This document shows positions 12,902 through 21,600 of a stretch of 64,000 nt of DNA, piece after piece (the stretch's first letter is position 1; each line of letters opens with the position of its first letter). Origin of the DNA: Mobula hypostoma (lineage: Eukaryota); NCBI RefSeq assembly GCF_963921235.1, contig NC_086097.1, positions 54,128,001 through 54,192,000 of the forward strand, read 5' to 3'. Below the pieces are notes generated by a model. The model was given only the letters and a program-made list of their open reading frames with translations, made no database searches and was not told where the DNA came from. The translations under genes and the position numbers were made by a program.

Positions 12902-14456
12902 CAGTGGTATGCAAAGGTTTGGGCACCCCTGGTCAAAATTTCTGTTACTGTGAATAGTTAAGTGAGTAGAAGATGAACTGATCTCCAAAAGTCATAAAGT
13001 TAAAGATGAAACATTCTTTTCAACATTTTAAGCAAGATTAGAGTATTATTTTTGTTTTGTACGATTTTAGAGAACTTTTACCAAGGTCTCAGACCTTAAT
13101 TGACTTGTTAGGGCTATGGCTTGTTCACAATCATTGTTAGGAAAGGCTAGGTGAAGCAAATTTCAAAGCTTTATAAATACCCTGACTCCTCAAACCTTGT
13201 CCCAGCAATCAGCAGCCATGAGCTCCTCTAAGCAGTTGCCTAGTACTCTGAAAATTAAAATAAATGATGCCCACAAAGCAGGAGAAGGCTATAATAAGAT
13301 AGCAAAGTCTTTTCAGGTAGCTGTTTCCTCAGTTCGTAATGTAATTAAGAAATGGCAGTTAACAGGAACGGTGGAGGTCAAGTTGAGGTCTGGAAGACCA
13401 AGAAAATTTTCCAAGAGAACTGCTCATAGGATTGCTAGAAAGGCAGGTCAAAACCCCCTTTTGACTGCAAAAGACTTTCAGGAACGATTTAACAGACTCT
13501 GGAGTGGTGGTGCACTGTTCTACTGTGCAGCAACACCTGCACAAATATGACCTTCATGGAAGAGTCATCAGTAGAAAACCTTTCCTGTGTCCTCACCACA
13601 AAATTCAGCATCAGAAGTTTGCAAAGGAACATCTAAACAAGCCTGAAGCATTTTGGAAACAAGTCCTGTGGACTGATGAAGTTAAAATACAACTTTTTGG
13701 CTGCAATGAGCAAAGGTATGTTTGGAGAAAAAAGGGTGCAGAATTTCATGAAAAGAACACCTCTCCAACTGTTAAGCACAGGGGTGGATCGATCATGCTT
13801 TGGGCTTGTGTTGCAGCCTGTGGCACGGGGAACATTTCACTGGTAGAGTGAGGAAGGAATCAATTAAATACCAGCAAATTCTGGAAGCAAACATCACACC
13901 GTCTGTAAAAATGCTGAAGATGAAAAGAGAATGGCTTCTACAACAGGATAATGATCCTAATCACACCTCCAGATCCATAATGGACTACCTCAAGAGGCAC
14001 AAGCTGAAGGTTTTGCCATGGCCCTCACAGTCCCCGACCTACACATCATCGAAAATCTGTGGATCAAAAGAGCAGTGCATGCAAGACAGCCTAAGAATCT
14101 CACAGAGCTAGAAGCATTTTGCAAAGAAGAATGGGTGAAAATCCCCAAAAACAAGAATTGTAAGACTCTTAGCTTGCTACAGAAAGCGTTTACAAGCTGT
14201 GATACTTGCCAAAGGGGGTGTTACTAAGTACTGACCATGCAGGGTGCCCAAACTTTTGCTTCAGGCCCTTTTCCTGTTTTGTTACTTCGAAACTGTAAAA
14301 GATGGAAATAAAAAAAAGTAATCTTGCTTAAAATATTAAAGAAATATGTCATCTTTAACTCTATGCCTTTTGGAAATCAGGTCATCTTTTACTTGCTTAA
14401 CTATTCACAGTAACAGAAATTTTGACCAGGGGTGCCCAAACTTTTGCATGCCACTG
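12902..14456 (+). mobile_element. Tc1/mariner transposon, long IR/DR-type TIRs
   Basis: TIRs cagtggtatgcaaaggtttgggcacccctggtcaaaatttctgttactgtgaatag and its reverse complement ending at 14456; TA on the left (TT on the right); inner direct repeat near 14240. Confidence 0.96.
13218..14234 (+). pseudogene. Frameshifted Tc1 DD34E transposase
   Basis: Paired-like HTH (GEGYNKIAK..RSGRPRK), VLWTDE, QQDNDPNHT, WPSQSPDLHIIENLW. 34 residues between the second D and E after repairing one frameshift; split across four ORFs. Confidence 0.93.
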
Positions 14457-16065
14457 TTTGTCTATTAAATAGTTAGATAAGTAGTGCAAAATAACAGAAA
14501 TAAAGAAGTAGTGAGGTAGTGTTCATGGGTTCAATGTCCATTTTGGAATTGGATAGCAGAGGGGAAGAAGCTGTTCCTGAATCACTGAGGGTGTGCCTTC
14601 AGGCTTCTGTATCTCCTACCTGATGGTGACAGTGTGAAGAGGGCATGCCCTGGGTGGTGGGGATTCTTAATGATGGATGCCACCTTCCTAAGATTCTGCT
14701 CCTTGAAGATGTCTTGGATACTACAGAGGCTGATACCCATGATAGAGATGACTAATTTTACAAGTTTCTAAAATTTATTTCAATCTTGTGCAGTAGCTGC
14801 CCCTCCTCCATACCAGAAAGTGATGCAGTCAGTCAGAATGCACTCCATGGTATATTGGTAGAAGTTTTTGAGTGTTTTAGTTGACAAATCAAATCTCCTC
14901 AAACTCCAACTGAAGTACAGCCACTGTCTTGTCTTCTTTACAGCTGCATCAATATGTTGCATCCAGGTTAGGTCCTCAGAGATCTTGACACCCAGGAACT
15001 TGCAATTGTTCACTCTCTCCACTTCTGATCCCTCTGTGAAGATTGGTTTGCATTCCCTCATCTTATCCTTTCAGAAGTCCACAATCAGCTCCTTGTTCTT
15101 GCTGACGTTGAGTGCAAGGTTGTTGCTGTGACGCCACTCAACTAACTGATATAGCTTGCTCCTGTACACCCTTTCATCTCCATCTGAAATTCTGCCAACA
15201 ATGGTTGTATCATCAGCAAATTCATAGATACTGTTTAAGCTCTGCCTAGCCACACAGTCATGGGTGTAGAGGGAGTAGAGTAGTGGGCTAAGCACACATC
15301 CCTGTGGAGCGCCAGTGTTAACTGTCAGTGAGGTGGAGATGTTATCACCAATCCGCACAGATTGTGGCCTTCCAGTTAGGAAGTTGAGGATCCAATTGCA
15401 GAGGGAGGTACAGAGGCCTAGGTTCTGTAGCTTTTCAATCAGGACTGTAGGAATGATGGTGGTAAATGCTGAGCTATATTCAATAAATAGCAACCTGACA
15501 TAGGTATTTGCATTGTCCAGGTGACCCAAGGCTGCACAGAGAGTCACTGAGTTTGTGTCTGCTGTAGGCCTATTGTTGCAACAGGCAAACTGCAGTGGGT
15601 CCAGGTCCTTCCCGAGACAGGTGTTGATTCTAGCCATGACCAACCTCTCAAAGCATTTCATCACTGTAGGTGTGAGTGCTAGTGGACAATAGTCATTGTG
15701 GCAGCTCACTCTGCCCTTCTTGGGCACTGGTATAATTGCCGTCCTTTTGAAGCAGAGGGTTTGAAAGCTGCAACAAAGAACAGCTGCATCTGAGAGCTCT
15801 TAAGAATATAACCATTAAGAATTGAGACTGCTCTTCAGGTTAAATTGAATTCTCAATTTTCTTAGCTATCCATCATGTGCACATTTATACGGATATCAAA
15901 AATGCCCTATTGATATTGCAGGATTACCTCCACAATAAACTAATATTAGTCCAGTTCTACATAAAACATTTCTTCCTCCTACCCGGAGATTGATGAAGGC
16001 TTCTGTTGGATTCTGCATCCATGGGCATGAGCAATGTTTCATTTTCTCAGCCAAGGAAAGAGGAT

Positions 16066-17307: not shown

Positions 17308-17862
17308 GTTGTTGTTTGTCCATCGTACGTCAATGAGGACCTCGACACCATTATTGATGGTGTCGAGACTAGCGCGTGACTTGGATTTAAGTGAAGGAGA
17401 GTTGCGCAGCGTCAGCCTCACTCTCTCTTCCCAATTCCCATCTGGATCCAGTGGCAAGACAGAGTTGAGACAGCTGGAGATGGGACTAGGCGCAGTGGAT
17501 GACCAGGACGTCTTTTGTATCTTGTCCTGCTCTACACGTTCCACGACGCTTGCAGAGACTGCCTTCTTGACCGTTGGATCTTCCATTGGTCTCGTCCGCT
17601 CAGTCCGCCGGAGTCTGTCTTCACATGCTGGGATAGACAACTCCCTATCTCACCGAGGGTTTGAGACCCGTCGGCTACCCTCACCTGGTTTAGCCGGTTT
17701 GTCGAAGCCGTTGCCCAGGGTGTGGCCGCTGTTGCATGCAAACAGCTACGGGGAGCCACAGGTGAGAGCTGAGTGCCAGGTGGGGACCAAAGGTGGACTA
17801 ACCGCCTTGAAAAGGACGCGACATGTTACCCCACCAGAGGTGCTACCCCTCCCTAACACCCC
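17308..17862 (-). mobile_element. Non-autonomous RTE-derived retroelement (5' UTR, short ORF, 3' hairpin, (CAA)n tail)
   Basis: RTE-type leader and short ORF MEDPTVKKAVSASVVE...; 3' hairpin ctcgacaccat/atggtgtcgag; minus-strand tail caaacaacaac; imperfect TSD aaatattat/aaatactat. Confidence 0.75.
17680..17862 (-). ncRNA. HDV-like self-cleaving ribozyme (predicted)
   Basis: Minus strand: P1 GGGGUGU/ACACCCU, P2 CUCACCUG/CAGGUGAG, P3 GGC/GCC, L3 UCCCCGU plus hairpin, J1/4 GG-GCAA, P4 CGGCUU/AAACCG, J4/2 GCUAA. Confidence 0.8.
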
Positions 17863-17989
17863 AAATACTATATTATAACCCAAGTAGCTGTATGTGGCAG
17901 AATACTTTGCACTAGTGCAATCATTTTTCCACTTGCTCCTCATAAGTAATGCAAGGTTCATTGGTCCTGTCATTTATTTGAAAATCTTG

Positions 17990-18639: not shown

Positions 18640-21600
18640 ACTGCTCAAGAAGAGCAGGGTGACCTGCCTCAGTGGCTGCTATCTGGTAATGCATACATCA
18701 ATCATAATAAAGTGCTTTGAGAGTTTGGTTATGGCACAAATCAACACTTGTCTCAAAGATGACCTAGATCCACTTCAATTTTCCTACCAACATTGTTGGG
18801 AGGTGGGAACCAAACTGAAGAGACTGGAAAAGAGGAGGTTGGCTCGCAAATAGAGAAAGCTTGGAGACAGTGTGTGAGGGAGGATAGGCAGGTGATAGAA
18901 AAGGGACGTGCTCAGACCGACGGTTTGAGATGTGTCTATCTGAACGCAAGGAGTATTGTGAACACAGCAGATGAGCTTAGAGCGTGGATCAGTACTCGAT
19001 GCTATGATGTGGTGGCCATTACAGAGACTTGGATGGCTCAGGGACAGGAATGGTTACTTCAAGTGCCGGGTTTTAGATGTTTCAGAAAGGACAGGGAAGG
19101 AGGCAAAAGAGGTGGGGGCGTGGCACTGTTGATCAGAGATAGTGTTACGGCTGCAGAAAAGGTGGACGTCATGGAGGGATTGTCTACAGAGTCTCTGTGG
19201 GTGGAGGTTAGGAACAGGAAGGGGTCAGTAACTCAACTGGATGTTTTTTATAGGCTGCCCAATAGTAACAGGGATATTGAGGGGCAGATAGGGAAAAAGA
19301 TCCTGGAAAGCTGTAATAATAACAGAATTGTCGTGGTGGGAGATTTTAATTTCCCAAATATCGATTGGCATCTCCCTAGAGCGAGGGGTTTAGATGGGGT
19401 GGAGTTTGTTAGGTGTGTTCAGGGAAGGTTTCTTGACACAATATGTAGATAAGCCTACAAGAAGAGAGACTGTACTTGATTTGGTATTGGGAAATGAACC
19501 TGGTCAGGTGTCAGATCTCTCAATGGGAGAGCATTTTGGAGATAGTGGTCATAATTCTATCTCCTTTACAATAGCATTGGAGAGAGATAGGAACAGACAA
19601 GTTAGAAAAGCGTTTAATTGGAGTAAGAGGAATTATGAGGCTATCAGGCAGGAACTTGGAAGCTTAAATTGGGAACGGATGTTCTCGGGGAAAGGTATGG
19701 AAGAAATGTAGCAAATGTTCAGGGGATATTTGTGTGGAGTTCTGCATAGGTATGTTCCAATGAGACAGGGAAGTTATGGTAGGGTACAGAAACTGTGGTG
19801 TACATAGGCTGTAGTAAATCTAGTCAAGAAGAAAAGAAAAGTTTACGAAAGGTTCAGAGAGCTAGGTAATGTTAGAGATCTAGAAGGTTATAAGGCTAAC
19901 AGGAAGAAGCTTAAGAAGGAAATTAGGAGAACCAGAAGGGGCCATGAGAAGGCCTTGGCGGGCAGGATTAAGGAAAACTCCAAGGCATTCTACAAGTATG
20001 TGAAGAGCAAGAGGATAAGACATGAAAGAATAGGACCTATTAAGTGTGACAGTGGGAAAGTGTGTATGGAACCGGAGGAAATAGCAGAGGTACTTAATGA
20101 ATACTTTACTTCAGTATTCACTATGGAAAAGGATCTTAGTGATTGTAGTGATGACTTGCAGCAGACTGAAAAGCTTGAGCATGTAGATATTAAGAAAGAG
20201 GATGTGCCGGAGCTTTTGGAAAGCATCAAGTTGGATAAATCAGAGGGACCAGATGAGATGTACCCCAGGCTACTGTGGGAGGCGAGGGAGGAGAATGCTG
20301 AGCCTCTGGTTATGATCTTTGCATCATCAATGGGGATGGGAGAGGTTCCAGAGGATTGGAGGGCTGCAGATGTTGTTCCCTTATTCAAGAAAGGGAGTAG
20401 AGATAGCCCAGGAAATTATAGACCAGTGAGTCTTACTTCAGTGGTTGGTAAGTTGATGGAGATAATCCTGAGAGGTAGGATTTATGAACATTTGGAGAGG
20501 TATAATATGATTAGGAATAGTCAGCATGGCTTTGTCAAGGGCAGGTCATGCCTTATGAGCCTGATTGAATTTTTTGAGGATGTGACTAAACACATTGATG
20601 AAGGAAGAGCTGTAGATGTAGTGTATATGGATTTCAGCAAGGCATTTGATAAGGTACCCCATTCAAGGCTTATTGAGAAAGTAAGGAGGCATGGGAGCCA
20701 AGGGGACATTGCTTTGTGGATCCAGAATTGGCTTGCCCACGGAAGGTAAAGAGTGGTTGTAGACGGGTCATATTCTGCTTGGAGGTCGGTGACCAGTGGT
20801 GTGCCTCAGGGATCTATTCTGGGACCCTTACTCTTCATGATTTTTATAAATGACCTGGATGAGGAAGTGGAGGGATGGGTTAGTAAGTTTGCTGATGACA
20901 CAAAGGTTGGAGGTGTTGTGGATAGTGTGGAGGGCTGTCAGAGGTTACAGCGCGATATCGATAGGATGCAAAACTGGGCTGAAAAGTGGCAGATGGAGTT
21001 CAACCCAGATAAGTGTGAAGTGATTCATTTTGGTAGGTCAAATATGATGGAAGAATATAGTATTAATAGTAAGACTCTTGGCAGTGTGGAGGATCAGAGG
21101 GATCTTGGGGACTGAGTCCATAGGAAACTCAAAGCAGCTGTGCAGGTTGACTCTGTGGTTAAGAAGGCATACTGTGTATTGGCCTTCATCAATCGTGGAA
21201 TTGAATTTAGGAGCCGAGAGGTAGTGTTGCAGCTATATAGGACCCTGGTCAGACCCCACTTGGAGTACTGTGCTCAGTTCTGGTCACCTCACTACAGGAA
21301 GGATGTGGAAACCATAGAAAGGGTGCAGAGGAGATTTACAAGGATGTTGCCTGGATTGGGGAGCATGCCTTATGAAAACAGATTGAGTGAACTCGGCCTT
21401 TTCTCCTTGGAGCGACGGAGGATGAGAGGTGACCTGATAGAGGTGTATAAGATGATGAGAGGCACTGATCGTGTGGATAGACAGAGGCTTTTTCCCAGGG
21501 CTGAAATGGTTGTCACAAGAGGGCACAGGTTTAAGGTGCTTGGGAGTAGGTACAGAGGAGATGTCAGAGGTAAGTTTTCTACACAGAGAGTGATGAGTGC

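Follow-up and report, generated by a model that had tools for sequence, protein, structure and literature searches.

What lies at the head of a short repeat on the minus strand of the 64,000-nt stretch analysed here (Mobula hypostoma, assembly GCF_963921235.1, contig NC_086097.1, positions 54,128,001 to 54,192,000; hereafter the window), and does it determine where copies of that repeat begin? A sequence-only reading had drawn a ribozyme resembling that of hepatitis delta virus (HDV) at 17862–17680, with a hairpin inserted in loop L3 and cleavage just before the first base, G1, of a miniature retroelement. We found that the flagged stretch is, as far as sequence comparison can tell, a real HDV-like fold and probably a self-cleaving ribozyme in the family that it represents. 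The reading we favour, with a probability of about 0.6, is that an HDV-like self-cleaving ribozyme, present in the window as a degraded copy, would make up the 5′ terminus of related long interspersed nuclear elements (LINEs) and LINE-derived retroelements.

All coordinates of the fold are on the minus strand, where element position p equals 17863 minus the window coordinate. Each helix listed in the sequence-only reading was present where it had been placed, in the nested double-pseudoknot order P1-J1/2-P2-P3-L3-P3′-P1′-P1.1-P4-J4/2-P2′. The P1 5′ strand of that reading, GGGGTGT (17862–17856), is the second, internal copy of a 9-nt repeat and can pair with the P1 3′ strand ACACCCT (17723–17717; ACACCCC in the family majority). 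It is followed by an 89-nt peripheral J1/2 domain (17855–17767), which RNAalifold folds as a structured rod with two hairpins. The P2 5′ strand CTCACCTG (17766–17759) forms 8 bp with CAGGTGAG (17687–17680), and the P3 strands GGC (17757–17755) and GCC (17726–17724) pair with each other. The L3 core TCCCCGTA (17754–17747) supplies the U and G of the reverse wobble and the CC (17753–17752) that lies opposite the GG of P1.1 (17716–17715). A 19-nt hairpin, GCTGTTTGCATGCAACAGC, occupies the 3′ end of L3 (17746–17728); hairpin and P3′ were both correctly located before, but a single G between them (17727) had gone unmentioned. J1.1/4 reads GCAA (17714–17711), and P4 consists of CGGCTT (17710–17705), the loop CGAC and AAACCG (17700–17695; 3′ strand AAGCCG in the family majority). 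Both P4 strands were as listed, although a C.A mismatch between 17707 and 17698 had been passed over. J4/2 is GCTAA (17694–17690), with a presumed catalytic C at 17693 whose role is assigned by position only.

Direct reading, a descriptor and conservation in five families all support the proposed double pseudoknot with a hairpin in L3. The descriptor specified a P1 of 7 bp, a P2 of at least 6 bp, a P3 of 3 bp, an L3 of 7–45 nt starting TCCNNG, GG after P1′ and C.AA before P2′. Its sole match in the window, both strands included, was the flagged site, and it found nothing in 100 dinucleotide shuffles, in a test that is post hoc because the descriptor was composed once the site had been seen. 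Owing to the hairpin, the window L3 is 28 nt long (26 nt in families D and E, below) rather than the short loop of ~7–8 nt that closes the 3-bp P3 elsewhere in the class.

The fold heads a repeat of ~556 bp, hereafter family A, which runs from 17862 to ~17307 and has an (AAC)n-type tail and target-site duplications, usually of 7–13 nt. Such a short-repeat 3′ tail with duplications is what RTE-clade LINEs and their short derivatives carry. Downstream of the ribozyme, the rest of this non-autonomous element occupies 17679–17305 (−) and ends in the tail, with copies aligning to ~17307. Copies are 92–96% identical across 17863/17862 to ~17307, and the 26 bases with which the shared sequence opens have 1642 exact matches in the 3.48-Gb Mobula hypostoma assembly, to which all genome counts refer. 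Non-self matches (n = 39) mostly start at 17863 (29 matches, query position 38), the other 10 starting slightly upstream (query 27–33). When 20 copies were sampled from their 3′ ends, 16 reached position 1–3 and the others began at 8, 23, 77 and 121. We found no Pfam-recognisable open reading frame (ORF) in family A.

An autonomous partner was found on the same contig. This LINE, family B, has the same starting base as family A, has a 5′ part of ~290 nt in common with it and is 78% identical to it over the first 276 nt, and its ORFs (in L031) match the Pfam domains Exo_endo_phos (1.7e-6) and RVT_1 (6.7e-27), that is, an APE endonuclease and a reverse transcriptase. Family A is, to judge by this similarity, a miniature, non-autonomous derivative of an APE- and reverse transcriptase-encoding LINE, as had been proposed. 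A first look at the genome gave more than 3000 candidates for family B. Its protein relatives (60–77% identity; opossum, coral, crustaceans, fishes) included none bearing a clade name, and the putative RTE assignment comes from the sequence-only reading. Two older families in the same genome were located with short patterns taken from variant contig ends aligned to a family-A copy: family C (170 matches with at most one mismatch; control 0) and family D (copies L116–L119). Family E comprises two copies from one source (L125 and L134) among 14 pattern matches on metagenome-collection contigs, the other 12 being unrelated GC-rich sequences. All five families have the same helix order, including the L3 hairpin, which is 19 nt long in A–C and 17 nt in D and E (GCTG, a 9-nt loop and CAGC). 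As a separate observation, the flank of one family-E copy (L125:22–159) contains a long inverted repeat with sub-threshold matches to microRNA precursors (best 62.5 bits, gathering score 95), which is probably a mere fold-back repeat.

Conservation was assessed on a main alignment of 21 natural copies from the five families and on a larger set of 41 copies. The proposed partners were paired in 95.2% of cells in the main alignment, compared to 35–51% with slid partners, and the covariation score (0.154 vs. 0.127) was reached by none of 500 shuffles; in the larger set, 89.2% of cells were paired and 10 of 500 shuffles reached the score. Compensatory changes were evident in P4 (pair 2, GC10/CG9; pair 4, CG16/UA3; pair 5, UG9/UA7/CG5). 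RNAalifold, which is independent of the fitted model, recovered P2, P3, the L3 hairpin, P4 and the J1/2 rod from the same 21 copies. It predicted 55 pairs, 15 of them with changes on both sides and mostly in J1/2 (for example columns 51:96, GC15/AU5; 61:87, GC12/AU8; 70:79, GC10/AU9). Both folding and covariation favoured a pairing within J1/2 other than the GGUGGGG/CCCCACC stem suggested earlier. The four basal pairs of the L3 hairpin were paired in all copies, one P1.1 pair was CG in all 20 cells that had letters and the other in 16 of 21, and P2 was nearly invariant (98.2% of cells paired), with a U.G in family E.

The letters that did not vary are those expected of the class. Across families P1′, P2 and P3 were fixed, as were U, CC and G in L3, GG in P1.1 and C in J4/2. 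The only variable positions of the L3 core are the two known to be free: it reads TCC-NN-GTA, where NN is CC in family A, TC in B and AA in C, D and E, and it thus keeps both the U and G and the two C that pair with the P1.1 GG; the G/U reverse wobble in L3 is described as conserved in HDV-like ribozymes in the part of PMC3774820 drawn on here. J4/2 is GCTAA in A, B, C and E and GCCAA in D, so that a C is retained in all five families at the position of catalytic C75/C76, to which its presumed role is owed. The distal L3 hairpin, P4, most of J1/2 and J1.1/4 (GCAA, TACA, TAAA or CAAA) varied between families. From the observed fold, its conservation and the compensatory changes in P4 and J1/2 we infer catalysis. 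Compensatory changes were found in P4 and J1/2; P1, P2, P3 and P1.1 barely vary, and what speaks for these four helices is their agreement with the class.

Where does the element begin? The sequence-only reading had taken G1 (17862) as the probable 5′ end of the retrotransposed RNA and proposed to check whether the 5′ ends of copies pile up there. Copies instead usually begin 9 nt upstream: in most of them, 5–9 further bases lie between the target-site duplication and G1, and these belong to GGGGTGTAT, a 9-nt second copy of the P1 strand followed by AT. We examined 50 family-A copies, of which 46 reach the motif. The exact 9-mer was found in 15, at least 7 of its 9 bases in 35 and at least 6 of 9 in 42, the shorter terminal repeats being eroded from the 5′ side. 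The duplication directly adjoins GGGGTGTAT in L009, L016, L030, L065, L070, L073 and L075, and other junctions are ambiguous only by one G. Among the copies examined, no family-A copy with a clear duplication started at G1. At the locus of one of these copies, contigs of runs X19 and X22 join the L009 flanks without the element (1459–1492 to 2082–2086); this flank belongs to a repeat, other copies of which represent empty sites, and the junctions fall on the borders of terminal repeat and tail.

The terminal repeat is, judging from the following comparisons, inherited in family A and not remade at each insertion. The terminal 9-mer differs from the internal repeat (TAT vs. TCA) and is therefore not a product of re-copying, and GGGGTGTAT followed by the internal start has 860 exact copies in the genome compared to one of the re-copied form. 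We had considered that the leader was remade at each insertion by reverse transcriptase slippage on G-runs, and these counts led us to drop that explanation for family A. A TATAT variant of the 9-mer accompanies one subfamily of element bodies in six of six copies. The terminal 9-mer is also retained in families C, D and E, the internal copy is likewise present in A, C, D and E, and the sequences of the two family-E copies diverge immediately 5′ of the terminal 9-mer.

From these 5′-end positions we infer a cut site: the cut giving the element its 5′ end is best placed 9 nt upstream of G1, with the terminal repeat as the P1 strand. Since the terminal and internal repeats are identical in their first seven bases, the terminal one can form the same P1, which would put an HDV-type cut right on the real boundary of the element. 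In this register the internal repeat is free to pair with CCUGGCACUC just 5′ of P2, forming a 10-bp helix that closes J1/2. This proposed helix, P1.2, joins GGGTGTTAGG (17861–17852) to CCTGGCACTC (17780–17771) in the window and was paired in 92.1% of cells in the main alignment. It is retained in A, C, D and E despite base changes and bulges, although most of these changes exchange one purine for another across from U and carry little weight. Constrained folds of intact copies favoured the terminal over the internal register by 5–12 kcal/mol overall (family A, −70.9 vs. −60.0 kcal/mol; C, −73.2 vs. −61.2; D, −71.5 vs. −66.0; B with two repeats, −60.8 vs. −54.3).

Several results weigh against a self-cleaving ribozyme that cuts at the terminal repeat, some touching on activity and some on the place of the cut. 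With regard to activity, the shuffle controls overstate the case because the copies are related, and covariation is silent on P1, P2, P3 and P1.1 because these helices hardly vary. Rfam gave no match in the window at gathering score and no HDV-type match there at E ≤ 10, and intact copies of four families gave no HDV, CPEB3 or drz match at E ≤ 10, in line with the earlier expectation that standard descriptors would miss this variant. A hairpin inside L3 was not found described for the HDV-like class in a literature search that did not include Ruminski et al. 2011 and supplements, and such a hairpin beside the active site might prevent catalysis. In the class, P1 typically opens with a G.U wobble. 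The wobble noted at the outset is present in the window copy, but G-C is the majority in family A (T in 9 of 46 copies) and is found in families B–E; in the main alignment the pair was GC in 18 copies, GU in one, AU in one and unpaired in one. A G-C at this place would count against activity to the extent that the class needs the wobble.

These same findings (core helices that do not covary, G-C for G.U at the presumed cleavage site, an L3 insert lacking precedent in the literature searched and the silence of Rfam) would also fit a fold conserved without self-cleavage, as a structure of the 5′ untranslated region serving translation, protein binding or a promoter, the element's 5′ end then marking transcription initiation. 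We regard this as unlikely, since the letters needed for HDV catalysis (U..CC..G in L3, GG in P1.1 and the C of GC(U/C)AA) are fixed amid varying neighbours, and since the class requires just such a double-pseudoknot order and a P1 of 7 bp that stops at the element's first base. Furthermore, the RTE, R2, R4 and L1Tc elements treated in the part of PMC3774820 used here employ this arrangement for 5′ processing.

With regard to the place of the cut, the ribozyme may instead work in the register originally drawn: the internal repeat would serve as P1, cleavage would separate the two repeats, and the upstream one would be a leader that is removed. All helices drawn for that register are present, and the shared family sequence in the window copy begins at the internal repeat. 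The terminal repeat ends in AT, which leaves a conserved U at position −1, the best base there for HDV according to the portion of PMC1874588 consulted. In family B, where two repeats are identical, ~12 of 30 copies have the proximal repeat as their 5′ end and lack any additional one, the remainder having part or all of one more repeat and two having about two more. Finally, in one copy, L102, P1′ and the internal repeat have both changed, to GCTCCCC and GGGGACC, and an A:U pair between them is kept. Nevertheless, we consider this register doubtful, somewhat more so than a non-cleaving fold: a leader removed by cleavage would not be passed on, whereas most of it is present in 35 of the 46 family-A copies; among copies with a clear duplication, none has its first base exactly at the internal G; the leader ends in TAT where the internal repeat has TCA, with the re-copied form nearly absent; it is conserved in C, D and E; and the constrained folds are worse. 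A chance resemblance within a repeat, which could be argued from the post hoc descriptor, is scarcely credible given the empty shuffles and a fold kept, with compensatory changes, in five families and in records from another source.

Three side results belong with these families. We sought a subfamily in which P1′ and one of the two repeats had changed together, and the variants GCACCCC, ACTCCCC and GCTCCCC (20 copies) were mostly single-copy mutations lacking a matching change, leaving L102 as the only case. In L102 most of L3 and its hairpin is also replaced by a short stretch (GG AGCCACAGC GGCC); this variant is single-copy in the genome and also occurs at a loose contig end in run X1 of another organism. 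For family B, slippage may be the source of the extra repeats, and in one of its copies (L053) the flank upstream of the 5′ end carries the reverse complement of the first eight bases of the element (ATGCACCC, A, GGGTGCAT), an inverted junction duplicate that possibly arose by snap-back during second-strand synthesis.

Under the favoured reading, a self-cleaving ribozyme cutting at the terminal repeat, P1 of a source element would form between the terminal GGGGUGY repeat and ACACCCC, and in families A, C, D and E the second repeat copy would contribute a strand to the helix closing the ~90-nt J1/2. Elements without a promoter of their own would be read through from upstream, as is the precedent for RTE, R2, R4 and L1Tc in the excerpts of PMC3774820 and PMC6765202 used. 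The ribozyme would fold co-transcriptionally and cut 5′ of the terminal repeat, and the freed RNA, whose first base would be the first base of inserted copies, would be copied into new sites. At integration a few 5′ bases would be lost unevenly, and extra ones would at times be gained. The L3 helix could project outward from its position before P3′.

Compared to genomic and antigenomic HDV, in which L3 is UCCUCG, the run CUGGGCAAC follows P1′ and J4/2 contains GCUAA, the family-B L3 (UCCUCG) comes nearest. HDV has a short J1/2, an L3 of 7–8 nt without a hairpin and a G1.U37 pair, and differs in all three from the ribozyme described here. It also has one or two looped-out bases before P3′, the very site of the L3 hairpin. 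Further parallels are found in retrotransposons (RTE, R2, R4, Baggins and L1Tc), for which the relevant parts of PMC3774820 and PMC6765202 report, as here, a double pseudoknot at the extreme 5′ end of the element, a P1 ending at the first base of the element, co-transcription of elements that lack a promoter and retention of the ribozyme by non-autonomous deletion derivatives. HDV-like ribozymes at RTE 5′ ends are therefore already published, and so are large structured J1/2 domains and a P1.2 "pinch" in large HDV-like ribozymes (PMC4908430, in part); it is the L3 hairpin that we did not find described. Unlike the retrotransposon ribozymes, ours have an L3 hairpin of 17–19 nt, a majority G-C at the cleavage site and a tandem P1 strand, the second copy of which probably closes J1/2. 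A stable J1/2 helix that brings P1 and P2 together is also reported for drz-Agam-2-1 and other large HDV-like ribozymes (Webb et al. 2016, same portion of PMC4908430); its counterpart here is a ~90-nt rod with compensatory changes, whose closing helix would be built from a duplicate of the P1 strand. R2 ribozymes, as covered by the section of Eickbush et al. 2013 (PMC3774820) consulted, likewise have a cut set by a stretch of ~7 nt that pairs with P1′, a common mismatch at the top of P1 (C.A in our family B) and 5′ junctions with duplications and extra bases. The duplicated bases of R2 are 28S target sequence, whereas here they are element sequence at dispersed insertion sites.

The copy in the window is itself in poor condition. 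Its P4 mismatch recurs in only one other of the 46 copies, and the T at 17717, the last base of P1′ and the source of its G.U, represents a CpG-to-TpG change. The nine bases upstream of 17862 match GGGGTGTAT at only 4 of 9 positions, which places it among the four of 46 family-A copies with at most five repeat matches. Seven bases, AGTATTT (17869–17863, −), occupy the place of the terminal repeat and are a degenerate, truncated or non-templated 5′ end. They follow a probable 5′ target-site duplication, ATAATAT (17876–17870, −), whose probable 3′ counterpart is the same 7-mer directly beyond the (AAC)n tail (17304–17298, −). The 5′ boundary is ambiguous, as a 5-nt duplication TATTT (17867–17863 and 17300–17296), which abuts 17862 and hence G1, would serve instead of the 7-nt ATAATAT with seven extra bases. 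Because it has no recognisable terminal repeat and carries the P4 mismatch, we consider the window copy a relic; if transcribed, it could use only the register with the internal repeat as P1.

In a single vertebrate genome the L3-hairpin variant stands at the front of well over a thousand copies of retroelements. The descriptors and covariance models used to search for the class assume a short L3 and miss this variant, so that the class may be under-counted. If the ribozyme is active, a loop beside the active site would tolerate a whole helix, a point of interest both to engineering and to modelling of the fold. The duplication of the P1 strand offers a simple test of how a retroelement sets or shifts its own 5′ end. 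More speculatively, and with low expectations, the L3 hairpin may be a working "P3.1" domain stacked on P3, and the tandem P1 strands may be two interchangeable registers, the internal one a spare once the terminal one is lost. If so, 5′-truncated copies would stay processable and the mixed 5′ ends of family B would be explained.

Other repeats were seen in passing. The motif GGGCC(R)AAGG(N)CCTG(N)TTCTGTG occurs at or near the ends of other repeats (L031:8800–8850 and the flanks of L088 and L098) and resembles the 3′ tail of another LINE or short interspersed nuclear element (SINE) family that is abundant in this genome. Within the window, remnants of a Tc1/mariner-type transposase lie at 13155–14230 (+), with matches to the Sleeping Beauty helix-turn-helix (HTH) domain (7.4e-12) and HTH_Tnp_Tc3_2 (7.5e-11). 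Two separate LINE fragments, at 14780–15799 (−; RVT_1, 1.9e-20) and 18763–19452 (+; APE endonuclease, 4.3e-13), lie on either side of the family-A copy.

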